The notes: generated from the sequence alone by a model not told the origin. Shown: positions 48,169-63,482, counted from the stretch's first letter. The stretch is 64,000 nucleotides of DNA from a bacterium ADurb.Bin236 (GCA_002069885.1 MWCD01000001.1:67795-131794), one strand, 5' to 3'. A program made the numbers and translations.

Positions 48169-49479
48169 TCAAGTCGTTTCATAAATATCATTGATGAATT
48201 TCCTTAATAAATGCCCTCCGCCGGGCTGCATCTTAGTGCGTTCAGCTTTTATGAACTCGCGTTTGAAAGAGCGGCGCAGGGCGGCGTCCGACGGATTGTC
48301 TTTCAGTTCCAATAGTAGAAGCGCGGCTCTCGAATATAACGATAAGCCTTTCAGAAAAGGAGCCGCGTCGGAATAGATGAATTTCAATTCAGGCGTTGTG
48401 TTAAACGTGTCTTTAATCGAATCAAGCCGTTTAAGGATAGTAACAAGAGCGGCGGAATTACCGGCTCGCGCGCGCTCGACGGCTATTTGCAGTTCTGTTT
48501 TCGGTTCGCCGGGGAAGAAACCTGCCGGCCATGCGTCGCAGAAATCGGCAAGCGCCGCCCTTCCCTTCTTGCCTGCCAAACTCTTTATCGCGCTTATTTC
48601 TGATTCGTCAGGGTCGTAACCGGCAGGATCGTAAAGATAGTCGGCGATTGTCAGCATCGGAACCATTGATGCGGAAGCTTCATTCATAGGGTTCGTGAAA
48701 TATCCTGCCAGCATGGAAGGCAATTCAGGGTCGCGTCCCCGCAAAGGCCCCATGTTCAATTTGTGGCGGTTATAGTCGTTCACAGGGTAGTTGTCCCAAA
48801 GCAGCGGTTTTCTCCGTATTATCTCTGCGAACGTTTTGGCGTCATCAACTGTGATGCTGGGAGAAACAACCTTAGGCCCTGTCCAGAAAACCCCTACTTC
48901 GGGTCGAAGCAACTTGCCGATTGTCACAAGATAGGGCGTCGGAGACACCGTCGCATAGTCTGTCGGGCACATCCAGAGTCTCGCGCCCTCGACTTTTGCT
49001 GACAATCTCTCGAAGAGACGATTGCACACATGCGCGTGCGCTTCTCCCAACGAAGAAAAGGCCCGGCGGTCGTCTTCATGCACTAGCTCCGGCGGAATAT
49101 CGTCTAGGAAAAGGCAGAAGGAAGTGACGCCGTCGGGAACCGGCCTTACAAACTTTTCGGCGAGAAGCTCGAAGTCGGCGTCTCTGCAATAGTGCATGGT
49201 CATTCCGGGGCTGACGGCCCAAATGAATTTGACGCCGTGTATTTTGCAGTCGCGGATGACTTCGGACACGCGCCGCCACTCAGCGGGCGGATATGGCGTC
49301 GTCCAGTTCATCCGGTGATATATGTCGTCTTTAGGCGCGTAGATGTAAGACTTAAGCCCCGCCGCGCCCATGAATTCGATTGTCCTAAGCCGCGCCGCGC
49401 GCGACCACGGTTTGCCGAAAAAACCTTCCACTACTCCCGTTTCGCAGAGCGGAACGGTTTTACGATTTATCCTTTTCAT
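48169..49479 (-). CDS. Glycoside hydrolase family 84 (O-GlcNAcase/NagJ-like beta-N-acetylglucosaminidase), cytoplasmic
   Basis: The protein has GVVEGFFGKPWS, YIYAPKDDIYHR and IWAVSPG blocks and a catalytic DD in FLDDIP. No signal peptide is present. Confidence 0.7.
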   Translation of the reverse strand: MKRINRKTVPLCETGVVEGFFGKPWSRAARLRTIEFMGAAGLKSYIYAPKDDIYHRMNWTTPYPPAEWRRVSEVIRDCKIHGVKFIWAVSPGMTMHYCRDADFELLAEKFVRPVPDGVTSFCLFLDDIPPELVHEDDRRAFSSLGEAHAHVCNRLFERLSAKVEGARLWMCPTDYATVSPTPYLVTIGKLLRPEVGVFWTGPKVVSPSITVDDAKTFAEIIRRKPLLWDNYPVNDYNRHKLNMGPLRGRDPELPSMLAGYFTNPMNEASASMVPMLTIADYLYDPAGYDPDESEISAIKSLAGKKGRAALADFCDAWPAGFFPGEPKTELQIAVERARAGNSAALVTILKRLDSIKDTFNTTPELKFIYSDAAPFLKGLSLYSRAALLLLELKDNPSDAALRRSFKREFIKAERTKMQPGGGHLLRKFINDIYETT

Positions 49480-50552: not shown

Positions 50553-51404
50553 GTGCCGGACAACCGAAGAGACATAAGCAGGCGGGAATTCATCAGGCTG
50601 GGAATAGCGGGCGGGGCGCTCCTTTTCCTGCCGCAGCTTCCCTCAAGCGCCGTTGCGCAGGAATATAAAGGCAAGCCGATTAACGGGATGATGCTTGCAC
50701 GGCTCCTCGGCTCGGACGCCCTGCCGGATCCGTTCGATTTCATTTTTTGCGCGGATGTGCACATACCGTTTGACGACAGAGGCGTGTTCAAGAAAATCAT
50801 TTCAGCCGCTAACGATCTCAAAGTCAAATTCGTTCTTATAGGCGGAGATACCGTTCAGGTCGGAAACCCGGCTAACTTCACGCTTTTACAGCGCGAACTG
50901 AAGAAGTTCAACATGCCTGTAATCTGCGCAATGGGAAATCACGACACCGCTTTTGAAGATTACGCGGACCAGCGCGAATGGACGGTTAGGTTCGGCGCGT
51001 CCTGTTATAAGTTCGATCTTCCCGGAGTAAGGTTCATCGCGCTGAATAACGCGAACCATATTCTCTCAGACGCAGACTACGACCTGCTCGAAGAATCGCT
51101 TGAAACTGATTTGAAAAAGGTCGTATTCATGCACAGGCCCGCAAATTTTCTCAATGTCAGATATGACACGCCGATGCGCGACGACGCGGGCCGGTTCCGC
51201 TCTCTCATTGAGAAAGGCGGGGCGACCGCCGTTCTGACCGGACACGAACACCACCACGCGGTGTATAAAATCAACGGAGTGACGCACATAGTTTCCGGCG
51301 GAGCCGGAGGCAGGCTGACTCCAGATATCGAAAACAATTTCCACCACTTCATGCTGATTTCGGCGGGCAAGAACACTTTCGACTACAGAGTGGAAAAGAT
51401 TTGA
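50553..51404 (+). CDS. Calcineurin-like metallophosphoesterase with a Tat signal
   Basis: The twin-arginine signal SRREFIRLGIAGGALLF is present. The motifs DVH, GGD and GNHD are present. The start is a GTG at 50553, with a GGAGG 5 nt upstream. Confidence 0.7.
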   Translation: MPDNRRDISRREFIRLGIAGGALLFLPQLPSSAVAQEYKGKPINGMMLARLLGSDALPDPFDFIFCADVHIPFDDRGVFKKIISAANDLKVKFVLIGGDTVQVGNPANFTLLQRELKKFNMPVICAMGNHDTAFEDYADQREWTVRFGASCYKFDLPGVRFIALNNANHILSDADYDLLEESLETDLKKVVFMHRPANFLNVRYDTPMRDDAGRFRSLIEKGGATAVLTGHEHHHAVYKINGVTHIVSGGAGGRLTPDIENNFHHFMLISAGKNTFDYRVEKI

Positions 51405-51445
51405 GTTTCACATTTCCAACTATAAACTCATTCCGGCGAGGCGCG

Positions 51446-52840
51446 ATGAATAATAAACTGTTTGCGTATTTTTTAACGATAATCGCCGCGGCGTTTTTCA
51501 TATCGCAATGCGCGGCGGCGGAAAACGATTGTGATTACCGTCCCGGCACAACACTGCGTTTCCGCGCGGGGTCGGATTTTGTGCGCGACCAGTTCGGGAG
51601 AGTGGCGGTAATGAGAGGGGTCAACATGCCTGCGGCTTACCGAGACCCTTTCCCTTACGGAGAAGCAGACCTCGACGCGATAGAGCCGTTCGGATATAAC
51701 CTCATCCGCCTGCCGATGTCGTGGCGCTCGCTGGAACCCGAAGAGGGCGATTTCCAGCATGAGAAACTGGATGACTATAAGAATTTTATCCGCATGGCGC
51801 ATAGCCGCGGGTACTATGTGATGCCTGATGTCCATCAGGTTCAATGGTGCGCTTCAGGCATGATACCCGATTGGATGTGCAAAGAGAAATCCGGGCACGG
51901 CATACTCGTGGACGCGATAAAGCGGGAGACCGACAGATTCTGGGGCAGCGAGGAACTTCAATCGAAATTCGCGGGATTGTGGAAGACTCTGGCTTTCGAA
52001 CTGAAGGGGACTCCGGGGCTTTTCGCGTATGACGTCATTAACGAGCCGTTCTCATACGGCGCGTTGTCTTACGGTAATTTCGAGAAATGCTGTCTATATC
52101 CGTTTTACAGAAACGTAGTCTCGGAGATACGCGAGATCGACCCGGACACTCCGGTGGCTCTTGAACCTCCTCCGGTGAACGTGCTTCTTCCCGCTTACAC
52201 GGAGAAGATGCCTTTCGACAATCTTATCTGGGCTCCGCATTCATACTACGCGCACTCATACGGCGAAAAAGGTTATTCTGTGGACGGGAAAGAGACTCCG
52301 GCGGACGCGCGGGTGAAATACAGGCGATTCGCGAAGGAGGCCGCAGGCATCGAAGCTCCTTTGCTTATAGGCGAATTCGGAATGTGCGGATGGCAGGATT
52401 ATGATTTCATGACTCCATGGCTTGAAGAAAACATGCTGATGCAGGAGCGGCTGTTCGCCTCGTCCGCCGTCTGGGATTACGGAAAAAGCAAGTACGGCTG
52501 GGGGATTTTGGACGATTCAGGAAATCCTAACCCTGACAAAATGCCCATCCTTCACCGTCCCTACCCTCGATATACGGCTGGCGAGCCTCAAAAAATGCAA
52601 TATGATTCGACGGCAAAAGCATTCAGGTACAGATACTCTGCGGATGATAAGATATGCGCTCCGACTGAAATATACGTTCCGCCTGAACTCTTCGGCGGCT
52701 CGCCACAGATAACTGTGGAATCCCAATGCGACGCCGAATGGGATTATTCCGCCGAGAGGAAAACCCTGATAATACCGGCCGCCTGTTCGGGCGTTGTCGA
52801 TGTGGCTGTCACGGCTGGAACGCGGCTGGAATCCGATTAA
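51446..52840 (+). CDS. Glycoside hydrolase family 5, secreted
   Basis: A signal peptide MNNKLFAYFLTIIAAAFFISQCAAA is present. The GH5 catalytic NEP (DVINEPF) and the nucleophile IGEFG are present. An alternative start lies at 51401. Confidence 0.7.
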   Translation: MNNKLFAYFLTIIAAAFFISQCAAAENDCDYRPGTTLRFRAGSDFVRDQFGRVAVMRGVNMPAAYRDPFPYGEADLDAIEPFGYNLIRLPMSWRSLEPEEGDFQHEKLDDYKNFIRMAHSRGYYVMPDVHQVQWCASGMIPDWMCKEKSGHGILVDAIKRETDRFWGSEELQSKFAGLWKTLAFELKGTPGLFAYDVINEPFSYGALSYGNFEKCCLYPFYRNVVSEIREIDPDTPVALEPPPVNVLLPAYTEKMPFDNLIWAPHSYYAHSYGEKGYSVDGKETPADARVKYRRFAKEAAGIEAPLLIGEFGMCGWQDYDFMTPWLEENMLMQERLFASSAVWDYGKSKYGWGILDDSGNPNPDKMPILHRPYPRYTAGEPQKMQYDSTAKAFRYRYSADDKICAPTEIYVPPELFGGSPQITVESQCDAEWDYSAERKTLIIPAACSGVVDVAVTAGTRLESD

Positions 52841-52983
52841 GCCGCCGGCGGGACTTCTTGCATTTTCTGTCGAATCCTTATTGGACACTATTTGTTCAAC
52901 TGCGACCTGTTTGAGGTTATAATCAACATGCGCAAAGCTAACCCGCATTTTTCGAAAATGCGGGCTAAGCGCGGCGGGCGGAT

Positions 52984-53871
52984 ATGATACGGCCACAAAA
53001 CGCTTTCATAGTCCTTAACACGGATTGCGACAAACGGGATGAGTGTTCCTATTGCTTTTACAACACTCAGCCGGAAAGATCTGTTCAGTCTAAACTTGAC
53101 ACGGACAAGATAGTGTCGATATTAAGGCGGCTGATGTTGCTCAATGTCGGCAATGTGTATCTTACGGGCGGAGAGCCTTTGTTGAGGGACGATCTTGAGA
53201 GAATAGTCTCTGCGGCGACCGCTATGAGGCTCAACACATTTTTGCTTTCTAACGGAAGGCTGCTTGATTCAAGCAGAGTGGCGAGACTTGACCGCGCGGG
53301 GCTGGATGTTTTCGTCCTTTCGCTGAACGATCTGTCGCTCGAAGACAAGAAGACGATTTCGCTGGCGGCAAGATTCAAAAACGCGGCTCTTTCTTTCATA
53401 TTCGTGCTGACGAGCAAAAACACGGCTTTGGTCCGGCCTGTGACTGAACTTGCGCGCGCGTTGGACGCCGGGCTGGTTTTCCAGCCCGCATGGATCCCCT
53501 CGGAGAACCCGTTGCGCGCCGCTATCAGCCCGGCTTCGCTCAGCCAGTTCGAGTGGTCGGAGTTGTATTCAGAGCTGCGCCCGTGGGCGGTTCAACTAGG
53601 TTACGAGGATTATCTGGAGTTGACGCACGACATATATCGCGACGGGAAACTGAAACCTAAGATGTGCGGGATGGGGACTGACTCGTTCGTCATTGACGCG
53701 GACGGGACAGTCTATCCTTGTTTTCACAGGCGGGATTTGTCATGCGGGAATGTCCGCCGCGACGACATTGCGGAGGTTCTGGACCGCGTCTCCAAGCATT
53801 CAGCGGAACTGTCCGCCGCCCCGTGCTTCGGCGAACACTGCGTCTCGCTTCACACTTCTTTCAAGAAGTAA
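52984..53871 (+). CDS. Radical SAM protein with a SPASM-like C-terminal domain
   Basis: The N-terminus carries a CX5CX2C cluster (CDKRDECSYC). The GGEPLL motif is present. The C-terminus is Cys-rich (CGMGTD..CFHRRDLSCGN..CFGEHC). Confidence 0.6.
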   Translation: MIRPQNAFIVLNTDCDKRDECSYCFYNTQPERSVQSKLDTDKIVSILRRLMLLNVGNVYLTGGEPLLRDDLERIVSAATAMRLNTFLLSNGRLLDSSRVARLDRAGLDVFVLSLNDLSLEDKKTISLAARFKNAALSFIFVLTSKNTALVRPVTELARALDAGLVFQPAWIPSENPLRAAISPASLSQFEWSELYSELRPWAVQLGYEDYLELTHDIYRDGKLKPKMCGMGTDSFVIDADGTVYPCFHRRDLSCGNVRRDDIAEVLDRVSKHSAELSAAPCFGEHCVSLHTSFKK

Positions 53872-53898: not shown

Positions 53899-55212
53899 TC
53901 AGTGGTCGGGGTAATAGCCCGTTACGCCCGTTGAAGACACTACTCCGGGAACGGAACCTGTAAAGTTAATCTTCTTGATCAAAGGAGACAAGCCTGAGTT
54001 GTCCGCGAAAACAATCGAATTCCCCGCCGCGTTCCATTTAGGCGCAAGATAAATCTGGTCTGACGAAACGACAGCCGGATTTGAAGAAATGGAACTCATC
54101 ACAAAAAGGTCGGAGCAAGTGTCGCCGACGGGAGGGACCTGCCCGCCGCCGGGGGCCGCGCATTCGTGGTCGAACTGAAAAATGACTTTGCCGTTCGGCT
54201 CGATGTCAGGATTTTTCGCGGAGCATTGACCATCGCCTGCGTCGCAAACGGGAGCTCCTGCGCCTGACGGATTATAAAGAAGCGAGGCCGCGCCAAGAGG
54301 ATTCACCGTGATTTTCCAGAGGTTCGAGTTCGACGCCGAGCCTGCTCCGCCGTCAACCGCGCGGTAAGACGAATATACGAGAGCGTTGTTTCCGGGCTGC
54401 CAAGCGGGAGCCTCGTCTCTCGCGGAGTGAGTCGTTATTCTTGTGACGCTTCCGCCGGTCGAAGTCATAGTGTAGATGTCGTACTGGCCCGGAGCGTCGG
54501 ATGAGTAAGCGATTTTCGCCGCGTCGTGGCTCCATGAAAGACCGCTGTATCTAACGTCTGTTCCGGAAGCCAGCGTGGTCAGAGTTTCAACATTTGAAAC
54601 GCAAGCGGCCTTTGCGATGCTTTGATTGCCAGCTCCGTCGTCGCGGACGAAAATCACCTGTTTGCCGACTGGAGAGAGCGCGGCGTACGAGTGAGCTCTG
54701 CCGGGAAGGTCTTCGCAAATCCTGCGGGCTGTGGCAGAGTTGGACGGGTTGGCCGCAAAAACCCTGTTGTAGCCTGACACCGGGTCGGCGGCGATGTACA
54801 CCATATCGCCTGCGGCGATGTCGCATATATTGCAACTTAATGGGTTCTGATAGTTCACGGTTCGAGCTACGGTTTTTGTGTTTCCGGAGCGAGTTGCGAC
54901 CACTGTTATGGTCGAGGTGGACGAGATGTCCACGTTTGCTCTGCTGAAAGTTCCATTGGCCGCGACTGTGACGGCGACATTGTTTACTTTTACCGTTGCG
55001 TTTGAGTTCGTGCTGCCTGAGACGGTTATTCTATCTACGTAGTATGTTTGGCCGTCATATAGAGGGCTGTCGACGGTGAGGAAAAAAGTCGGGTCTGTGG
55101 GAGTGGAGGCCCCACCTCCTCCGCCCCCGCCTCCACAGCCTGAAACGGCCCATGCGGAGACAATCATCATAAGAGCGAGGACAACCCGCGATGCCGCTGT
55201 TTGATTTTTCAT
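53899..55212 (-). CDS. PD40/TolB-like beta-propeller lipoprotein with a poly-Gly linker
   Basis: The lipobox AVSGC is followed by GGGGGGGG. PD40-like repeats (KIAYSSDAPGQYDIYTM, NALVYSSY) are present. The start overlaps the kdsA stop. Confidence 0.6.
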   Translation of the reverse strand: MKNQTAASRVVLALMMIVSAWAVSGCGGGGGGGGASTPTDPTFFLTVDSPLYDGQTYYVDRITVSGSTNSNATVKVNNVAVTVAANGTFSRANVDISSTSTITVVATRSGNTKTVARTVNYQNPLSCNICDIAAGDMVYIAADPVSGYNRVFAANPSNSATARRICEDLPGRAHSYAALSPVGKQVIFVRDDGAGNQSIAKAACVSNVETLTTLASGTDVRYSGLSWSHDAAKIAYSSDAPGQYDIYTMTSTGGSVTRITTHSARDEAPAWQPGNNALVYSSYRAVDGGAGSASNSNLWKITVNPLGAASLLYNPSGAGAPVCDAGDGQCSAKNPDIEPNGKVIFQFDHECAAPGGGQVPPVGDTCSDLFVMSSISSNPAVVSSDQIYLAPKWNAAGNSIVFADNSGLSPLIKKINFTGSVPGVVSSTGVTGYYPDH

Positions 55213-56039
55213 ATCATGTCCTGCTTTTTCACCATCGCGTCCAGCGCTTTCGCGTGAAGCAACAGGTTTTTAAGATTTTTCAACGGAACCATATTCTGGC
55301 CGTCCGAAAGAGCCTCGTCAGGCTCGTGGTGAGTTTCGAGGAAAAGCGCGTCCACGCCGACCGCCATGCAAGCGCGGACCAGAGGATCGACGAACTCGCG
55401 TTGTCCGCCGCTGGAAGTGCCGGCCCCGCCGGGCAACTGCACGCTGTGCGTGGCGTCGAAACAGACCGGATATCCGAACCGTCTGATTATAGGCAGCGAC
55501 TTGAAGTCCACCACAAGATTGTTGTAGCCGAATGTGGAGCCGCGCTCTGTTATAATTATTTTATCATTTCCGGCGCTGAGGCATTTGTCGATTATGTTGC
55601 GAACGTCCCATGGAGCAAGGAACTGGCCTTTCTTGATGTTGACCGGTTTGCCTGTCTTGGCAGAGCCGACGACAAGGTCGGTCTGTCTGCAAAGAAAAGC
55701 GGGTATCTGGATGATATCGATGAAAGGAGCAATCTCGTCGACTTCCTCCAACGAGTGGGCGTCCGTGGTTACAGGCAGTCCAAGGTCGCGTTTGACTTTT
55801 GCGAATAGTTTTTTGCCAGATTTGATGCCGAGTCCCCTGAAGGAGGAGCCGGACGACCTGTTTGCCTTGTCGTATGACACCTTGAATACGAGCGGCACGC
55901 CGATTTCGCCGCAGATGCTCTTCAGCTCCTTCGCGATGGAGAAACAGCTATCCTCGCTTTCGAGGACGCAAGGCCCGGCGATTAGAACAAAAGGCGCGCC
56001 CCCGCCTATGGGGATGCCGCTTATGTCGAATCCAGTCAT
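55209..56039 (-). CDS. kdsA: 2-dehydro-3-deoxyphosphooctonate aldolase (KDO-8-phosphate synthase)
   Basis: The N-terminus FVLIAGPCVLES is present, and the overall KdsA similarity is clear. Confidence 0.85.
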   Translation of the reverse strand: MTGFDISGIPIGGGAPFVLIAGPCVLESEDSCFSIAKELKSICGEIGVPLVFKVSYDKANRSSGSSFRGLGIKSGKKLFAKVKRDLGLPVTTDAHSLEEVDEIAPFIDIIQIPAFLCRQTDLVVGSAKTGKPVNIKKGQFLAPWDVRNIIDKCLSAGNDKIIITERGSTFGYNNLVVDFKSLPIIRRFGYPVCFDATHSVQLPGGAGTSSGGQREFVDPLVRACMAVGVDALFLETHHEPDEALSDGQNMVPLKNLKNLLLHAKALDAMVKKQDMI

Positions 56040-56085
56040 CAGATGTTATCCCCGCCCGCCGCTGTAACCGCGACGATAGTAAATA

Positions 56086-57207
56086 TTATAGCGCTCCGGC
56101 CCCGCCCGCAGTATCCCGTCGCAAATTCAGGATGTCTTCGACATGCCGCGAACCGGACGCGATATCGACGTCGATAAGCAATTTGATCCATGCGCGCCTC
56201 GGTTTGAAATGGCCGGGCAGGCGCACGGCGTCTTTTTCAGTGGTCACGATCCAGTCGGCCCCGGCTCTCGCCGCCGCGTCTTCCACCCGCTCCAAATCCG
56301 CGTCTCCATATGGATGATGGTCCGTGAATCTATATGCGATGACCGCCTCGCCAGTAACGTTTGCCACCGTTCTTTCAAACTGTTCGGGATTTCCAAGCCC
56401 GCTCACCGCCAGAGCGCGCGTCCCTCTAAGACTGTCTATGCCGGGCGATTCGCCCTCCCCTATCCTTTTCGCTCCGGATATTTTATAGACGGATTCGACG
56501 ATAGGCGTTCCGGGAAACATGCGGGAGAGAGCGTCGCGGGTCTGCGCTGTTTTTTCCGCGCCCGCCGCGTCTATCCGGGTCATCCAGAACAATGTTGCCC
56601 GTTTTAACTCGGTCAGAGGCTCTCTGAGCAAACCTGCTGGGAAAAGTTTTCCGAACCCGAAAGGGTTGCAGGCGTCGATCACGGCGATGTCGGCGTCTCT
56701 GGCCAGCGTAACAAACTGAAAGCCGTCGTCGAGAACAATCGAGCCGCAAGAAAAACGGTCGATAAGAGAGCGCGCGCCGCGCGCGCGGTCAATGTCAACC
56801 GCGACCGGCCTGCCGTCCTCGAGGTATAAAATCGGCTCGTCTCCGCAACTGTGCCATGATAGCGCGTCGGCGCGGGATGAAAGAATGATAGAGCCTGAGC
56901 CTTCCCTTCCGTAGCCGCGAGTCGCTATGCCGGGATTCATTCCTCTTTCGGCAAAACCGGAGGCGAGCATCCTGCAGATAGGAGTCTTGCCCGTGCCGCC
57001 GAGGGTAATGTTTCCAACGCTGACCACCGGAACATCGAGTTTGAGCGCCGGAGCGGCGGAAAGTTTTTTCATCCTAGCGGCGTGAGCGACGCGGTAAAAC
57101 TCGGACATAGCAAACATGCCGGCGCGGCAAACAGCCGCCGCCGCGCCTTTCTTTTCGCCGGACATTATGGGATATAGTTTGGAACCGCTCCGGGAGTCTA
57201 TTATCAT
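56086..57207 (-). CDS. lpxK: Tetraacyldisaccharide 4'-kinase
   Basis: The P-loop VPVVSVGNITLGGTGKTP is present. Confidence 0.8.
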   Translation of the reverse strand: MIIDSRSGSKLYPIMSGEKKGAAAAVCRAGMFAMSEFYRVAHAARMKKLSAAPALKLDVPVVSVGNITLGGTGKTPICRMLASGFAERGMNPGIATRGYGREGSGSIILSSRADALSWHSCGDEPILYLEDGRPVAVDIDRARGARSLIDRFSCGSIVLDDGFQFVTLARDADIAVIDACNPFGFGKLFPAGLLREPLTELKRATLFWMTRIDAAGAEKTAQTRDALSRMFPGTPIVESVYKISGAKRIGEGESPGIDSLRGTRALAVSGLGNPEQFERTVANVTGEAVIAYRFTDHHPYGDADLERVEDAAARAGADWIVTTEKDAVRLPGHFKPRRAWIKLLIDVDIASGSRHVEDILNLRRDTAGGAGAL

Positions 57208-58550
57208 AGGGAGGATTCCTTAAAGATGCGGTGGGCGCGCTCGGTCGCGCCCGCGTTCCGCATAATTACTTTTAATGCGTTTGAGTCTACGCGTGCCCTC
57301 GCCTCTTCGTCGTCGAGAAACTCAGACAGCCGAGCGAACAAATCTTCAGAGTCCTTGACCATCACGCCGCCGCCGCCCGCTTCGAGGGCGCGGGCGCTGG
57401 CGATGAAGTTCATCATGTGCGGACCATAGAAAGCCGCCTTGCCGCAAGCGGCGGGTTCGAGTATGTTGTGTCCGCCCCGTTCCACCAGACTTCCGCCCAC
57501 GAAACACAGAGTTGAGAGACCGTATGCCAGCCTCAACTCTCCTATGGTGTCCATAACCACCACTGATGGAGTTGAGACGACGCCAGCCGAAGCCAGCGAT
57601 GAGCGCAGCTTTGCGTCCGGAAACGAGGCCTGCGCCAGATCAAGAACAACCGCCGCGCGCTCAATGTGCCGCGGCGCCAGAAGAAGCCTCAACTCCGGCC
57701 GTTTCCTCCTCAGACGCGAGAATACGTCGAGTATCATCTCCTCTTCGCCGGGGTGCGTGCTTCCCGCAGTGAAAACAGGGCCGCCGCCGGGATTGAGGAG
57801 CGCCTTCAGTTCTGCCGTCTTTTCGGCGTCGGGAGCGTCGGGAGAGGCGTCGAATTTCATGTTGCCGACGACATGCGTTTTCGCCGCCGGAGCGCCCAGC
57901 CGGATAATCCTCCCGGCGTCCTCTTCCGTCTGCATACCCAGAGCGCGCATCGCGCTGAAAACACTTGAGTAAACTGTTTTCACCATCGCTCCCGCCGAAG
58001 CCATCCTGTCCGACACGCGGCCGTTTAAGAGGATCACCGGAGCGCCGCGCCGCGCGACCGCCGTCGTGAGGTTCGGCCATATCTCTGTTTCCATGAGAAT
58101 CAGCGAGGAAGGCCTGAACGCTTTCAAAGCGCGCCTGACGACCCACGGAAAATCGAACGGGAAATATGCCGCGGTGATGGAACCGCCGAAAGAACTCTCA
58201 AGTATGTTCATGCCGCCTTTGGTGGCTGTGGTGACCACTATCGACGCGTCTTTTTCCCTATCAAGCAGCAACCTTATGAACTTTGTTGCGCCGACGGCCT
58301 CGCCTACGGAAACAGCGTGAACCCAAATCACGCGCTCGCCCGATTTGCGGCGCTTGACGGCGGGATATCTGCCGAATCGCTCCTGCATAGTTCCCGTGAA
58401 CTTCTCGGAGCGCGCTCCCTGCCATAAAAAATAAAGCCGCAGAAAAGGATATGCGGCTATCAGAACCGCGTTGTAGATAATGAGCACAAACAAAAGAACG
58501 CTCTCCTGAACGGTCGCCGCTTCCAGCCCGCCGTTCGTTAAAAAAACCAC
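57204..58550 (-). CDS. waaA: 3-deoxy-D-manno-octulosonic acid (Kdo) transferase
   Basis: The blocks IWVHAVSVGE and FVGGSLVERGGHN(I/P)LEPAA are present. The true start may be an internal GTG near 58502. Confidence 0.8.
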   Translation of the reverse strand: MVFLTNGGLEAATVQESVLLFVLIIYNAVLIAAYPFLRLYFLWQGARSEKFTGTMQERFGRYPAVKRRKSGERVIWVHAVSVGEAVGATKFIRLLLDREKDASIVVTTATKGGMNILESSFGGSITAAYFPFDFPWVVRRALKAFRPSSLILMETEIWPNLTTAVARRGAPVILLNGRVSDRMASAGAMVKTVYSSVFSAMRALGMQTEEDAGRIIRLGAPAAKTHVVGNMKFDASPDAPDAEKTAELKALLNPGGGPVFTAGSTHPGEEEMILDVFSRLRRKRPELRLLLAPRHIERAAVVLDLAQASFPDAKLRSSLASAGVVSTPSVVVMDTIGELRLAYGLSTLCFVGGSLVERGGHNILEPAACGKAAFYGPHMMNFIASARALEAGGGGVMVKDSEDLFARLSEFLDDEEARARVDSNALKVIMRNAGATERAHRIFKESSL

Positions 58551-58656: not shown

Positions 58657-60114
58657 TCAAAACTTCAAGTTGTACACGACGACATCGTCCGTTTTCCCCT
58701 TTAGTTTGACGCGGCGGCTGGGGCCGAATTGAAAATGTTCTTTTAGTTTCTGATAGACGGTTTCTCCGACAAGGACGCCCTCGCGGCTCGACGACGATAG
58801 AGACTTTATGCGCGAAGTCAGATTCACGGTGTCGCCTATGACGGTGTATTCCATACGCCTGATGCTGCCAATGTTGCCTGCGACGACATTGCCGGAATTG
58901 ACGCCGATGGCCACATTGAATTCCGGCAGCCCGCGCTCCGCCCATACGCGATTGAGCGCGGCCAATCCGTCGCGCAGCCTGATAGCGCATTCGACAGCTT
59001 TTCTTTCGCCGTCCGGGTCGGGCAGCGGCGCGCCCCAGTACGCCATTATGTTGTCTCCGATGAACTTGTCGATTGTTCCGTCCAGTTCGAAAATCGAGTC
59101 CATCGCCATTGAGAAATATTCGCTGAGCATATCCAGAAGAAGAGCGGCGTCCATGCTCTTTGACAACTCGCGGAAATTGACGACTTCGGCAAAAAACACT
59201 GTCACCCAAGCGCTGCTGCCTCCGAGGTCAAGCTTGTCAGGGTCCTTTAGAATCTGTTCAGCGACGCGTTTTGAGACGTAAGAAGAAAATGTGTCCAGAA
59301 TCCTCTCTCTGTTTATTTCATGATTGATGGTGGTTTTCAAAAGTTCGGCGTGTTCTATAGAGCTTTCCATCGCCCTTTTTATGGAGGACAGATAAGAAAC
59401 CATGTCTGCGCCGAATCTTTCCGCGGAACTGTCGGCGACGGCAATTACGCCTTTTACCGAGCCGCTCCAGATGAGAGGGAATACTGATAGGAAATCTAAC
59501 TGTGCGCTTTGGTCGGAAGGGCCGCAGTATTCGAGGCGGGGGTCGCTGTGGGTGAAGCGACTGACGAAAAGTCGGCCTGACCTTGCGACTTCATAAAATA
59601 GGTGGTCTGAAGGAAGAGGCTCGGCAGACAATTCGCCGCGAGGCCGCAGTTGCCCGAGTTCGTCGAACAGAAAAACATCAGCGCTCGCCGCGCTCGCTCT
59701 ATGGGCGAAGTTATCTTCTAGCGCAGCCAACAACGAGTCTTCGTCAGGGTTGTCCTGAAACTTTTTCATCGCGTCGATGATGCCCGCGACGTTTTCCCTG
59801 CTCTCTTTTATCGTTTTGAGGATGTGGCCGAGATAAACGCCGGCTCCCATTAGAGCGAAAGAGGCAAATACGAAATTTGTTCCGGACCTCGTCGCTCTCG
59901 AATACTGAAGTATGAAAAAAGGAGACAGGCTCAGCAACAAGATTAAAGAAGTCAGAATAGAGCCGGTTCTTCTGAAGTAAAGTCCTGAGAGAGCGACAGG
60001 GACTACCACCAGCGGGCGCGCCCACTCTTCCATCGGAAAGTTGAACCACGTGGTAAATGCGATTATGGACAACGCCGCCAGCGACGTTGCCGCGACCAGC
60101 CCGACTCGTTTCAT
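58657..60114 (-). CDS. Membrane-anchored GAF-domain class III adenylate/guanylate cyclase
   Basis: About four N-terminal TM helices are followed by a GAF-like region and a cyclase homology domain (KFIGDNIMAYWGAP). Its ATG overlaps the upstream stop. Confidence 0.7.
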   Translation of the reverse strand: MKRVGLVAATSLAALSIIAFTTWFNFPMEEWARPLVVVPVALSGLYFRRTGSILTSLILLLSLSPFFILQYSRATRSGTNFVFASFALMGAGVYLGHILKTIKESRENVAGIIDAMKKFQDNPDEDSLLAALEDNFAHRASAASADVFLFDELGQLRPRGELSAEPLPSDHLFYEVARSGRLFVSRFTHSDPRLEYCGPSDQSAQLDFLSVFPLIWSGSVKGVIAVADSSAERFGADMVSYLSSIKRAMESSIEHAELLKTTINHEINRERILDTFSSYVSKRVAEQILKDPDKLDLGGSSAWVTVFFAEVVNFRELSKSMDAALLLDMLSEYFSMAMDSIFELDGTIDKFIGDNIMAYWGAPLPDPDGERKAVECAIRLRDGLAALNRVWAERGLPEFNVAIGVNSGNVVAGNIGSIRRMEYTVIGDTVNLTSRIKSLSSSSREGVLVGETVYQKLKEHFQFGPSRRVKLKGKTDDVVVYNLKF

Positions 60115-61001
60115 ATTATTCCCGCCATAAGCAAAACTTCGTTCATAGCCGACATAACAAAACACACCGCAAACGATGTGCGCATCCTCTTAAAAGTCAG
60201 GCTCATAACAAGAGTCATAAGGAGCGCCTCCGCTATGAATCCTCCTATAATTGACTGTATCGGGATTGTTCCGAGGAAAGAAAAAAAGGCGAAGTAAGGA
60301 AGGTGCACGGCTGAAATCATCGTCAGCAGAATAACGGTCGTTCCGACAGTTGTCAGCCCTCTTTCGTCTTGTCTGTTCCAGACTGCGTAAATGAAACTGA
60401 ACAGAATCAGCGCCTGTGACCACATAACGGCAAAATGAGGGGCGACTTTCCAGAAATCAAAACTCACCGGAAATCCCCAGTTTGAGACGAAGATGACAGT
60501 GTACGCAAGAACAACGCATCCAGCCAACGCGGATTTGGCAATGTCGGCAGTCATTCTGCCTTTTCGCATCCCGAATTTTGCCATAAGCCCGGGTTCGGAC
60601 ACGGCAAGATAAAAAACCGCCCAACAAGCGAACGCCGGATAAAAAACATACATTTTCGGAGTGTCGTAGAAAAAGTATTCCCACGACTGAAAACCGGGCA
60701 TGCTGATTAGAATCAATACCGCGCGCCGGAGATTCAACGCGCCGAAAACCGCCAGCCCGCCGATAAAGATTATCAAATGCAGCGCGACCGCATAGCAGTC
60801 GGAAACCTGTCTTTCAAACAATCCTGCTTTATGCATAAAAACCATGAATCCTGAAACGCATCCGTAAGCGAAAAGCAGAATAATAGCGCGGATGAAAACA
60901 GGGTCGCTGAACGACCTGAACTTTTCGCGTTCAAGAGAAGCGTCTTCCTTTAGTCGCAATTCAGAGAATGTTTTTTCAAGTTCAGCCGAGCCTAAGCTCA
61001 T
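60111..61001 (-). CDS. Polytopic integral membrane protein of unknown function
   Basis: There are about 8 predicted TM segments. I recognised no motif. Confidence 0.5.
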   Translation of the reverse strand: MSLGSAELEKTFSELRLKEDASLEREKFRSFSDPVFIRAIILLFAYGCVSGFMVFMHKAGLFERQVSDCYAVALHLIIFIGGLAVFGALNLRRAVLILISMPGFQSWEYFFYDTPKMYVFYPAFACWAVFYLAVSEPGLMAKFGMRKGRMTADIAKSALAGCVVLAYTVIFVSNWGFPVSFDFWKVAPHFAVMWSQALILFSFIYAVWNRQDERGLTTVGTTVILLTMISAVHLPYFAFFSFLGTIPIQSIIGGFIAEALLMTLVMSLTFKRMRTSFAVCFVMSAMNEVLLMAGII

Positions 61002-61011
61002 CGTTTGCGCC

Positions 61012-61854
61012 TCAATAGACCAGCGATTTATAAAACATGTAATAGAGCAGATATGACAAAAAAACCATCCTTGTGGAACGGCAGAAATAGAAAGCCATAG
61101 TAAGAGTCACTTGTGTGAGCAGGCAGGCGGCGAGTGAGCCGATGAAAGCCGTCACCGGGTCTTTGCTTCCGATTACGTTCGGAGCCCACATTGAAAAGAC
61201 GAAGAGCGTGTTGATTAGCACAGGAACGGAAAGCTCAAATCTGCGATCCAACAACGCGCGGGTAAACAAACCGTAGATTATCCCGAAAACGGGGCCGTAA
61301 ACCGCGATATTAACTGCCAGATAGAAAACAAACTGTGCGGGCGAAGGGAAGGAGACCGAGGCTCCTCGCGCTTTGCTTATGAAAAAATATGTCACTGTTA
61401 TAAATACAGCCGCAGTCAATAAGGAGAAAGCGGCTTCTTTCTTCAAGTCGGAAGCAGCCGCATATCCGAGAGACGAGAGCGTTTTGGGGGCGGATTTTAT
61501 CAAGGCCGCCAGCGACAGGAAAGCAGGGAACGCAAACACCAGAAACGAAGGCGCAATAAAAATGCTCCCTGCTATCGCAAATACGGCAAAACCCGCAAAA
61601 ACAATAAACCTGAACCAAGCCGCAAGAGACATTCCGCCTGCGGATGCTAGAGCCGCTGGAAAAGCGATAAACAAAAAAACCATTGCCCCCGTAGCTTCTC
61701 TAGCCTGCTCTTCATAAAAAGCAAAAACAATAGCCGAAGCGAAAAAAGCCGCCGCAAAGACTGACGCCGATATGCGGAACGTCGGCTCAGTAAATAGAGA
61801 CATCTTCTGGAAACCGTTGTAATAAGCTTCCGTTTTTCTGTAATAGTAATTCAT
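61012..61854 (-). CDS. Polytopic integral membrane protein of unknown function
   Basis: The protein is highly hydrophobic and 280 aa long. Its start overlaps the stop of the second cyclase. Confidence 0.5.
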   Translation of the reverse strand: MNYYYRKTEAYYNGFQKMSLFTEPTFRISASVFAAAFFASAIVFAFYEEQAREATGAMVFLFIAFPAALASAGGMSLAAWFRFIVFAGFAVFAIAGSIFIAPSFLVFAFPAFLSLAALIKSAPKTLSSLGYAAASDLKKEAAFSLLTAAVFITVTYFFISKARGASVSFPSPAQFVFYLAVNIAVYGPVFGIIYGLFTRALLDRRFELSVPVLINTLFVFSMWAPNVIGSKDPVTAFIGSLAACLLTQVTLTMAFYFCRSTRMVFLSYLLYYMFYKSLVY

Positions 61855-63365
61855 AGCCGCATGCCTTTTATTACAAACAATTCGTCGTCGCGCGCGGCGA
61901 CGGTTTCGTCTATTCTCTCTATGTCAAACTTGTCCGATATCAAATCAGCGGTCTGGCGGGTAACCAGCAGTTTCTCGCCGTGCCGTTTGGTGAGGGATTC
62001 CGTCCGCATAGCCTTGTCGACCTCTTCGCCGATTATGGTGAACATGGTTTTTCTGTTGTCGCCGACGTTGCCGACGAGCGCCTCTGCGGTATGCACGCCC
62101 ACTCCTGTCCTAAAGGTCTCCTTTCCTTCAGAAGCCCATTTTGCGTTCAGGCCTTCGACCGCCGCAAGGATGTCGAGAGCGGCGAGAGCGGCGTTTTCGG
62201 CGTGTCTTTCATCAGGCGCCGGGGCGCCCCAGTACGCCACCACGCAATCGCCTATGTATTTGTCGATAGCGCCGTTTCGGTTAAACACCACATCGACAAT
62301 GACGGTGAAATATTCGTTCAGTCTGCGGACAAGCTCCTGAGGGGATATCCTCTCGGAGATTGTCGTAAAATCCCTGATGTCAGTAATTAGAATCGAAATC
62401 AACTGGCGGCGGCTTTTCAGCAAATCCGGGTTCGATAGCATGTGCTCGGCGACGGACGACGAAACGAATCTTGAAAACAACTCTTTGGATCTTTTTTCGC
62501 GAGCCAACTCTTCTTGCCTTCTTCGCTCCTGACCGATGTTCGCCACGACCGCCGCGGCGGCGTCCGCAGCCAGTTGTATGAGGGACGCGTCCTCTTCGTC
62601 GAAATCCACGCCGTCGCTTTTGTTTATAAGCGCCACTGCGCCTGTCACGCCGTTCTTGGAGCGCATAGGGGCGGCCAGCATTGATTTGATCCCTGAGTCG
62701 CCGCTCGGAATAAACCTTTCATCCGCGTCCGCCGAACTGCATGAAAACAATTTGTTTTCCGAGGCGCATCTCATAAGAGGATGCGTTTCGTCAAAGGTCG
62801 GCAAATCAGCGAAACCGGTTTCGATACGATATAAAACAGGCGGAATGGACGAAACTTCCAAATCAGCGGATGGATTCAGAACAACCGCCACAGCCTCCGC
62901 GCCTGTGAGCCTGACCGTCTGCTCGGCCAGCCGCATCATCACATCCCTCTCCGTGGTCGAGCCTCCTATAGTCAGCATCGCTTCCGAAGCTGTCTCTGCG
63001 TCTTTATTGGCTTTTCGTCCTCTGCCTACCGCCCACCCTGAAAACACGCCGAGGAGATTCAAAAACACGAGCATTGGGATAATGACCAACACGCCCACCG
63101 CGCTGTCGACGTGAAACGGCTCGACCGGCGCGTATAAAAGATATAAAACGGTCACGATTATCCCTGTCGCGATGCCGCCCTTGAGGCCGAACCCGCTGCC
63201 GGCTTGATAGATTGGAAAAAGAAGAAAGAACTTTATATAATCGCGTCCGCTCCACCCAACTGCCAGAGCGGAGAACATTACGGCGAAACAAACCGCGATT
63301 TCAATCAATATCAAAGCCCAAAGCTTGCTTTCTTTGCGCCTTGTCGCCGCGATGTCGCTATTCAA
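61851..63365 (-). CDS. Membrane-anchored GAF-domain class III adenylate/guanylate cyclase (paralog)
   Basis: N-terminal TM helices are followed by GAF and a cyclase domain (KYIGDCVVAYWGAP). The apparent start is a TTG at 63365. Confidence 0.7.
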   Translation of the reverse strand: MNSDIAATRRKESKLWALILIEIAVCFAVMFSALAVGWSGRDYIKFFLLFPIYQAGSGFGLKGGIATGIIVTVLYLLYAPVEPFHVDSAVGVLVIIPMLVFLNLLGVFSGWAVGRGRKANKDAETASEAMLTIGGSTTERDVMMRLAEQTVRLTGAEAVAVVLNPSADLEVSSIPPVLYRIETGFADLPTFDETHPLMRCASENKLFSCSSADADERFIPSGDSGIKSMLAAPMRSKNGVTGAVALINKSDGVDFDEEDASLIQLAADAAAAVVANIGQERRRQEELAREKRSKELFSRFVSSSVAEHMLSNPDLLKSRRQLISILITDIRDFTTISERISPQELVRRLNEYFTVIVDVVFNRNGAIDKYIGDCVVAYWGAPAPDERHAENAALAALDILAAVEGLNAKWASEGKETFRTGVGVHTAEALVGNVGDNRKTMFTIIGEEVDKAMRTESLTKRHGEKLLVTRQTADLISDKFDIERIDETVAARDDELFVIKGMRL

Positions 63366-63482
63366 TGTATTGCAACCATTAGACTGATTAATGTCAATTT
63401 GTCATTCAAACGATAATATACATCAGGGATGTTAATTGGGATAGATATATTTTAAAGCCGCAGAAACGAAACGCCGAGTCTT

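Follow-up and report, generated by a model that had tools for sequence, protein, structure and literature searches.

Class III nucleotide cyclase domains act as head-to-tail dimers, in which one chain gives two metal-binding Asp residues and the other chain the residues for base specificity (Lys and Thr/Asp), for the transition state (Asn and Arg) and for the gamma-phosphate (Lys). The bacterial enzymes have been described as homodimers with two productive centres, and the origin of pseudo-heterodimers has been placed in early eukaryotes, by duplication and fusion (PMC9552081). Here we analysed a four-gene operon, cyc1-mem1-mem2-cyc2, in which two membrane-bound GAF-cyclases flank two polytopic membrane proteins; it lies at positions 58,657 to 63,365 of a 64,000-nucleotide (nt) stretch of DNA from bacterium ADurb.Bin236 (GCA_002069885.1 MWCD01000001.1:67795-131794), the whole of which is called the window. 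From the distribution of catalytic residues we consider it probable that the operon encodes a four-subunit membrane module for cyclic AMP (cAMP) signalling, the core of which would be an obligate cyc1–cyc2 heterodimer.

Two diverged class III domains forming one site and one degenerate regulator pocket are known from the C1-C2 core of the mammalian adenylyl cyclases (ACs) and from the alpha/beta soluble guanylyl cyclase. In HMMER comparisons with mammalian ACs, cyc1 matched C1 domains best (VC1, AC5 462-621, AC8 409-568) and cyc2 matched C2 domains best (AC5 1067-1249, AC8 956-1160, IIC2 and also AC2), and the complementary loss of catalytic residues between partner domains, of the C1/C2 type, was found in the cyc1/cyc2 pair as well. 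The architecture of the mammalian transmembrane (TM) enzyme was not found: it is a single polypeptide with two bundles of six TM helices, whereas here two bacterial genes encode chains with about four TM helices and a GAF domain each. The bacterial pair also differs in being of class IIIb (Thr) instead of IIIa (Asp), in its lighter degeneracy and in the two extra membrane subunits encoded between the cyclases.

Among solved structures, the nearest in sequence (E 1e-22 to 1e-27) were the homodimeric class IIIb cyclases Cya2 of Synechocystis (2W01), CyaB of P. aeruginosa (3R5G) and CyaC of Spirulina (1WC0). They resemble cyc1 and cyc2 in their fold, in the Lys/Thr-type specificity positions and in an AYWGAP-type motif, but carry all catalytic residues on every chain and have two equivalent sites, whereas cyc1 and cyc2 each lack a part. 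According to the account of Guo et al. 2001 given in PMC9552081, metal-site and transition-state mutants of M. tuberculosis Rv1625c are inactive alone and complement each other as a one-site heterodimer; those were laboratory changes in a single gene, whereas the changes described here occur in nature, are fixed and have been conserved across lineages. In chytrids one heterodimer is formed by two sensor-cyclase chains from separate genes, RGC and NeoR (PMC12264004), although these are eukaryotic, make cGMP, use rhodopsin sensors and have no accessory membrane subunits. In addition, the class III cyclase GcyA of Rhodospirillum centenum reportedly needs the operon-encoded 'non-catalytic subunits' GcyB and GcyC (PMC4681086), which are non-catalytic hypothetical proteins of a cGMP-producing system and neither supply a complementary cyclase domain nor resemble the CPBP family discussed below. 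In the literature searched, whose coverage was incomplete so that a prior description is possible, we found neither a natural bacterial complementary or heterodimeric class III cyclase nor CPBP-like partners of cyclases. This agrees with an earlier reading of the window made from the DNA alone (the sequence-only reading), in which the system was held to be possibly of an unstudied type.

Catalytic residues of the two cyclases

Catalytic positions were set by alignment to the solved Cya2 (2W01), the adenylate-converted fusion 6FHT, CyaB (3R5G) and IlaC, and were scored in 14 members of the cyc1 family, 51 members of the cyc2 family and the 79 nearest ordinary cyclases (Table 1). All six core positions are canonical in 79 of 79 ordinary cyclases. 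In contrast, the pair of metal-binding Asp residues is present within one chain in cyc1 and not in cyc2, whereas the transition-state Asn and Arg are present together in cyc2 and not in cyc1, where the Asn (at a position we take to be that of Asn1025 of rat AC2-C2) is lost in 13 of 14 members. The two cyclases are thus not equivalent enzymes, and the half of the catalytic residue set that is missing differs between them. The absence of the Asp pair, which the sequence-only reading had linked to inactive pseudo-cyclases, is true of cyc2 alone (first Asp in 0 of 51), while both residues are kept in 14 of 14 cyc1 proteins; such complementary defects favour a single heterodimeric enzyme over pseudo-cyclases.

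Table 1. Residues at the catalytic positions, with the number of proteins carrying each; the residue of the window protein is given in brackets
Position	cyc1 family	cyc2 family	Ordinary cyclases
First metal Asp	D14 (D329)	E47, Q2, K2, D0 (E310)	D79
Second metal Asp	D14 (D373)	D45, E3, N2, S1 (D354)	D79
Specificity Lys	K14 (K369)	K51 (K350)	K79
Specificity Thr	T14 (T443)	T51 (T424)	T79
Transition-state Asn	D6, E5, Q1, R1, N1 (D450)	N51 (N431)	N79
Transition-state Arg	R in 6 of 14 (R454)	R51 (R435)	R79
KGK Lys	absent	K in 50 of 50 aligned (K474)	K60, R19

The base-specifying Lys and Thr are invariant in both families, whereas the same columns hold Glu and Gly in the guanylate cyclase Cya2. This pair is the class IIIb adenylate signature, so that ATP would be the substrate and cAMP the product of cyc1–cyc2; the sequence-only reading had expected the specificity to need an alignment, and alignment of the cyclase homology domains (CHDs) allowed it to be read off.

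Since the Asp pair is intact only in cyc1 and the substrate and transition-state set only in cyc2, a heterodimer would have one complete site. In it, D329 and D373 of cyc1 would face K350, T424, N431, R435 and K474 of cyc2, forming a single site that converts ATP to cAMP. The second pocket, made of E310 and D354 of cyc2 together with K369 and T443 of cyc1, would have no Asn and is predicted to be degenerate and non-catalytic.

Both proteins have the composition proposed by the sequence-only reading, with about four TM helices at the N-terminus, a GAF-like middle and a class III domain. The last was recognised by Pfam Guanylate_cyc (PF00211; cut-off 21.9 bits) with 68.4 bits in cyc1 (E 8e-19) and 84.6 bits in cyc2 (E 9e-24). 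The GAF domain of cyc1 was matched by Pfam GAF (E 6e-10) and GAF_2 (E 4e-9), the latter in 12 of 12 family members. In window cyc2 the GAF match was faint (E 0.11); GAF_2 was matched in 29 of 34 members of its family, and the family alignment matches this region to the GAF domain of cyc1. No confident Pfam family was found for the TM domain of the cyclases, which gave just weak matches to MASE6, DUF4118 and DUF3333; in cyc1 it holds a conserved motif (family consensus P-x-YQAG-x-x-FG-x-x-GG) and is homologous to the TM domain of cyc2. The helical linkers carry the conserved motifs FSRFVSSSVA (cyc1) and FSSYVS (cyc2). The two cyclases are also paralogous, as had been claimed: in the window they share 29% identity (E 4e-33), and their family profiles were aligned by hhalign over 462 columns, TM domain included (E 1e-67). 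In a neighbour-joining tree each family was monophyletic. This full-length homology, together with the monophyly, suggests that the whole gene was duplicated long ago and that subfunctionalisation followed.

Conservation of the operon and a natural chimera

The sequence-only reading had staked its case on the four-gene arrangement being shared by relatives, and the same order was indeed found to recur in about ten distant metagenomic lineages, with 19-46% identity and unrelated flanking genes. It is kept in the window and in our loci L001-L007, L164, L181, L008, L009, L011, L129, L131, L152, L156, L110 and L184. All related loci that are long enough show it, with the exception of L010, and the junctions are mostly 4-nt overlaps; the arrangement is conserved far beyond chance. 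Proteins of the distant lineages are 31-44% (cyc1), 34-44% (cyc2), 24-35% (mem1) and 19-29% (mem2) identical to those of the window.

Several searches contributed to this picture. Word-based protein searches with mem1 and with mem2 returned only three close relatives apiece, and the search with cyc2 gave about 38 full-length orthologue clusters (34-94% identity), after which the scores dropped sharply to generic cyclases. A degenerate DNA pattern specific to cyc2 (motif VT[VI][MF]FxE[VI]xNF) gave 91 matches, of which nine were additional family loci, including six distant ones. Scanning contigs with the cyc2 alignment added 80 loci (L012-L091) that match the generic cyclase domain only, at query residues ~187-484 (mostly ~260-484) and with 32-41% identity to the cyc2 query; they are uninformative on taxonomy and GTDB occurrence. 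Additionally, an exhaustive HMMER search recovered 28 relatives of mem2 among 1.84 billion representative proteins, nearly all of them full-length at about 300 amino acids (aa), and every member with visible context sits between two cyclase genes. So small a number means that the system is rare, and mem2 appears to be exclusive to it. All source sequences are metagenomes of unclassified bacteria; the four-gene system is rare and confined to uncultured bacteria. Of the dedicated membrane complex for cyclic nucleotide monophosphate (cNMP) signalling seen by the sequence-only reading, a dedicated, co-transcribed and conserved module therefore stands, and a physical heterodimer and four-protein complex would be its predicted form.

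The genes cyc1 and cyc2 were never found apart, except as a chimera. This protein, P0046 (530 aa, present on six contigs), is a solitary in-frame fusion of the N-terminal part of a cyc1 to the C-terminal part of a cyc2. Residues 1 to ~410 are cyc1-like (41-80% identity to cyc1 orthologues vs 14-55% to cyc2), and the sequence that follows is cyc2-like (63-73% to cyc2 vs 34-43% to cyc1), so that cyc1 provides the TM and GAF domains together with the beginning half of the cyclase domain, and cyc2 the remaining half. Every canonical catalytic residue is present, KGK included, and no mem1, mem2 or second cyclase lies nearby. Apparently, recombination between the paralogues rebuilt an ordinary, homodimer-competent cyclase and the membrane genes were deleted alongside. 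A chimera with the intact halves rejoined matches the prediction of the complementation model, and, although a single case, it hints at a role of mem1 and mem2 that is limited to the split enzyme. It is possible that P0046 is an assembly artefact recurring across samples; if real, it is a ready-made control for the split enzyme.

These data bear on the simplest alternative, that cyc1 and cyc2 are two independent homodimeric cyclases which are merely co-expressed; each would then have a separate sensor domain and some, perhaps weak, activity, and Glu would stand in for Asp at the metal site of cyc2. Homodimers are what has been described for bacterial class III cyclases (PMC9552081), Glu can in principle bind metal, window cyc1 retains the Arg and is acidic where the Asn would be, and cyc1 keeps its Lys and Thr. 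We nevertheless consider this explanation unlikely, because the losses are family-wide and exactly complementary while all 79 neighbouring cyclases keep the full canonical set, metal cannot be bound in that way by a cyc2 with Gln or Lys at the site, most cyc1 orthologues are without Asn, Arg and KGK together, and the two genes never separate, save in the chimera that rejoins the intact halves.

The membrane proteins and the proposed mechanism

An AlphaFold2 model of mem2 built from 27 diverse sequences (predicted local distance difference test score 89.9, predicted template-modelling score 0.85) has eight long helices and some short amphipathic ones, and can tentatively be read as a CPBP (Rce1/SpdC) fold without the protease motifs. 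A Foldseek search of the PDB gave no significant match; the closest structural match of mem2 was SpdC. The family profiles of mem1 and mem2 align end to end over 251 columns (hhalign, 97.3% probability, E 1.6e-11), which identifies the two as remote paralogues. On this alignment rests the putative assignment of mem1 to the same fold, also with eight TM helices, and its reading as a probable CPBP-like pseudo-protease subunit. The statement of the sequence-only reading that the middle proteins belong to no recognisable family holds for the family databases: no Pfam model, the CPBP model PF02517 included, matched 27 mem2 and 12 mem1 members at E<=1, NCBIfam gave no match for window mem1 and mem2, and PDB sequence profiles gave none at E<=10. 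It does not hold with regard to their relation to each other and the fold modelled for mem2. Both families have a conserved cytoplasmic N-terminal segment and a hinge of the form (E)PE-x-M-x-x-x-G-L/Y-R/K.

Could mem1 and mem2, instead of being structural subunits, be working intramembrane proteases, or else transporters, with the cyclases sensing a product or substrate of theirs? The modelled CPBP protease fold of mem2 would allow it, as would the conserved polar residues E140, N215 and R262 of mem1 (its only invariant polar ones) and D153 and R146 of mem2, in which the invariant residues are G144, G215 and G294 only. However, the CPBP motifs EExxxR, FxxxH and HxxxN/D, by which Rce1 and the CAAX proteases of PF02517 are defined here, are kept in neither family, no conserved Glu-Glu or His column was seen in either, and the Pfam CPBP model matched 0 of the 39 members scanned. 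SpdC, moreover, is presumably a non-catalytic CPBP member. An active protease or transporter role is accordingly unlikely, and both proteins are best read as pseudo-proteases. The ENA protein P0006 (271 aa), encoded on a 1.2-kb contig, pairs a DHHA2-domain protein with the final 49 residues of mem2 (85% identity); this is probably the result of contig chimerism or mis-calling and not a true fusion.

Inactive CPBP/Abi-domain proteins are known as membrane partners of sensor kinases. SpdC makes TM-domain contacts with WalK and nine further histidine kinases (PMC5854430), and Abx1 of group B Streptococcus binds CovS (PMC3578759). By analogy, mem1 and mem2 may bind the TM domains of the cyclases as sensory or regulatory scaffold subunits and help to set their activity. 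The analogy has its differences: SpdC (S. aureus, 6U0O) and Abx1 show no detectable sequence similarity to mem1 and mem2, and their partners are histidine kinases, whereas here the presumed partners are cyclases and two paralogous copies are encoded inside the operon of the enzyme. If it is true, the role of pseudo-proteases as membrane regulators would extend from histidine kinases to cyclases.

In the proposed heterodimer, cyc1 and cyc2 would pair through their helical linkers and catalytic domains, and the 4-TM domain, GAF domain and linker of each chain would relay signals to the catalytic dimer. That the degenerate pocket is conserved suggests that it binds some ligand, which may be a regulator; the forskolin and bicarbonate sites of eukaryotic cyclases are comparable regulator sites. 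If the heterodimer is real, the asymmetric one-site state would have arisen and persisted in prokaryotes without fusion, and the operon would offer a simple system, expressible in E. coli, for the role of a degenerate pocket and for membrane control of a catalytic dimer. More tentatively, one may picture a receptor-cyclase in which the CPBP-fold pseudo-proteases mem1 and mem2 sense a lipid or peptide and gate the obligate heterodimer through TM contacts, with the degenerate pocket acting allosterically; this could represent an invention made independently in bacteria or else a remnant of C1/C2 asymmetry, and we regard it as possible at most.

A further explanation is that one cyclase is a pure pseudo-enzyme regulating the homodimer of the other, with cyc2 acting for example as an inhibitor or localisation factor. 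Pseudo-enzyme partners are common in signalling and the canonical first metal Asp is missing from every cyc2, but the invariant Lys, Thr, Asn, Arg and KGK Lys of cyc2 (50-51 of 51) would then be pointless, and the cyc1 homodimer would in most lineages be without Asn, Arg and KGK; we hold it to be very unlikely. A Pycsar-like anti-phage system, in which the cyclases would make a cyclic pyrimidine that activates membrane effectors, is so improbable that it was rejected, for although PADLOC PycC models matched both cyclases (85-88 bits) and mem1 faintly matched a '4TM effector' model (E 0.008), the PycC scores were no stronger than the generic CHD score, mem1 and mem2 have no cNMP-binding domain that an effector would need, the Lys/Thr residues (purine), the GAF and TM sensor domains and the housekeeping context (purQ, waaA-lpxK-kdsA) fit signalling, and the gene order is stable across lineages and not island-like.

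Returning to the obligate heterodimer, a number of points speak against it or limit its reach. The argument for heterodimerisation is drawn from residue patterns, and in the window proteins the degeneracy is mild (Glu at the metal site of cyc2; Asp for Asn, with the Arg kept, in cyc1), so that weak homodimer activity is possible in this organism. The cyc1 of L184 is canonical at the six core positions, Asn and Arg included, yet without the KGK lysine. The Lys and Thr of cyc1 are invariant, for which a purely vestigial second site fails to account. About 12 non-redundant operons stand behind the cyc1 and mem1 statistics, which is a small sample, and cyc1 and cyc2 did not come out as sister groups in the neighbour-joining tree. 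The AlphaFold2 model of mem1, made with three close sequences, was unusable (local score 40). Finally, L010, from the same metagenome sample as the four-gene locus L003, reads cyc1-mem2-cyc2 with overlapping junctions and without mem1; a strict 1:1:1:1 complex is therefore not universal.

Layout and surroundings of the locus

The coordinates are collected in Table 2. Four consecutive, tightly packed open reading frames (ORFs) on the minus strand were confirmed, in the order and with the lengths of the two middle proteins given by the sequence-only reading. That reading had all four genes joined by ATGA overlaps, which is correct for two of the three junctions: 4-nt ATGA overlaps occur at cyc1/mem1 and mem2/cyc2, whereas mem1 and mem2 are separated by a gap of 10 nt (ggcgcaaacg), with GAGG located 9-12 nt before the mem2 ATG. 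The mechanical ORF of cyc2 runs to a GTG at 60165; we preferred the ATG start because the orthologues are 485-488 aa long and because this ATG forms the overlap with mem2. In the AT-rich intergenic region upstream of cyc1 no convincing minus-strand sigma-70-like site was found. The gap that follows cyc2 showed no terminator-like site, since the matches on the minus strand (e.g. 58512, 58469) fall within waaA, and the window contains no Rfam families or tRNAs.

Table 2. Coordinates of the operon, of its parts and of other features (positions in the window unless a locus is named)
Feature	Position	Strand	Description
cyc1	61851-63365	-	504 aa, TTG start; membrane GAF-cyclase, predicted 'C1-like' subunit giving the two metal-binding Asp
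cyc1 N-terminal membrane domain	63030..63323	-	~aa 15-112, ~4 TM helices by hydropathy
cyc1 GAF domain	62538..62957	-	aa 137-276, Pfam
cyc1 CHD	61902..62411	-	aa 319-488, Pfam PF00211, aligned to Cya2 and CyaB
cyc1 D329 codon	62379..62381	-	GAC; first metal-binding Asp by alignment to Cya2 and CyaB
cyc1 D450 codon	62016..62018	-	Asp at the transition-state Asn position (eevdkamr vs aqvnltyr, revnlasr)
mem1	61012-61854	-	280 aa, polytopic membrane protein, remote mem2 paralogue
mem2	60111-61001	-	296 aa, membrane protein, ~8 TM helices
cyc2	58657-60114	-	485 aa from ATG; membrane GAF-like cyclase, predicted 'C2-like' subunit
cyc2 CHD	58669..59208	-	aa 303-482, Pfam PF00211
cyc2 E310 codon	59185..59187	-	GAA; first metal Asp position (vffaevvnf vs CyaB vffsdirgf)
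Presumed promoter region	63366..63482	-	117 nt, AT-rich, intergenic, upstream of cyc1
Synteny break	58551-58673		gene content differs from that of L164 and the L001 clade
waaA, lpxK, kdsA	55209-58550	-	waaA encodes Kdo transferase; 4-nt waaA/lpxK overlap
Lipoprotein-like ORF	53899-55212	-	437 aa
Three genes	50553-53871	+	calcineurin-like phosphoesterase, GH5 cellulase, radical-SAM/SPASM protein
GH84-type gene	48169-49479	-	beta-N-acetylglucosaminidase
Chimera P0046	L183:6001-7593		530 aa
Three-gene locus	L010 (5558-9461)		cyc1-mem2-cyc2
cNMP-binding protein	L001:19617-20141	-	173 aa
cNMP-binding protein	L003:11318-11842	-	173 aa
cNMP-binding protein	L164:11089-11613	-	173 aa
cNMP-binding protein	L009:11971-12489	+	173 aa
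Genes beside the L009 operon	L009:10894-15437		301-aa cyclase, cNMP-binding protein, response regulator, 816-aa multi-GAF protein

The similarity of the window to its 92.5%-DNA-identical relative, L164, ends at 58673, while the cyc2 stop codon lies at 58657-58659; this loss of similarity marks the boundary of the conserved block. Beyond it, L164 and the 84%-identical L001 clade continue with NamZ and metK, whereas the window continues with waaA-lpxK-kdsA. A recent rearrangement would explain the break, as would an assembly join.

We also looked at possible cAMP receptors. No cNMP-binding receptor was found among the window's ORFs. In other loci a single-domain cNMP-binding protein of 173 aa, highly conserved between two distant lineages (E 1e-73), is encoded 2.5-6.5 kb from the operon, and it is a candidate for the cAMP receptor of the system. 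In L009 it has further company beside the four-gene locus (Table 2), and these surroundings look like a local cyclic-nucleotide signalling neighbourhood.

The neighbours of the operon in the window are housekeeping genes, with a purQ-type amidotransferase upstream and waaA-lpxK-kdsA directly downstream. The presence of the latter genes indicates that the organism, filed in the NCBI taxonomy under unclassified Bacteria, makes lipopolysaccharide and is diderm. The kdsA stop codon has a 4-nt overlap with the lipoprotein-like ORF, whose product combines a Cys-terminated signal peptide and eight consecutive glycines with a Glucodextran_B-like domain and beta-propeller repeats of the PD40 type. The three plus-strand genes and the GH84-type gene that lie farther away appear to be unrelated to the operon.

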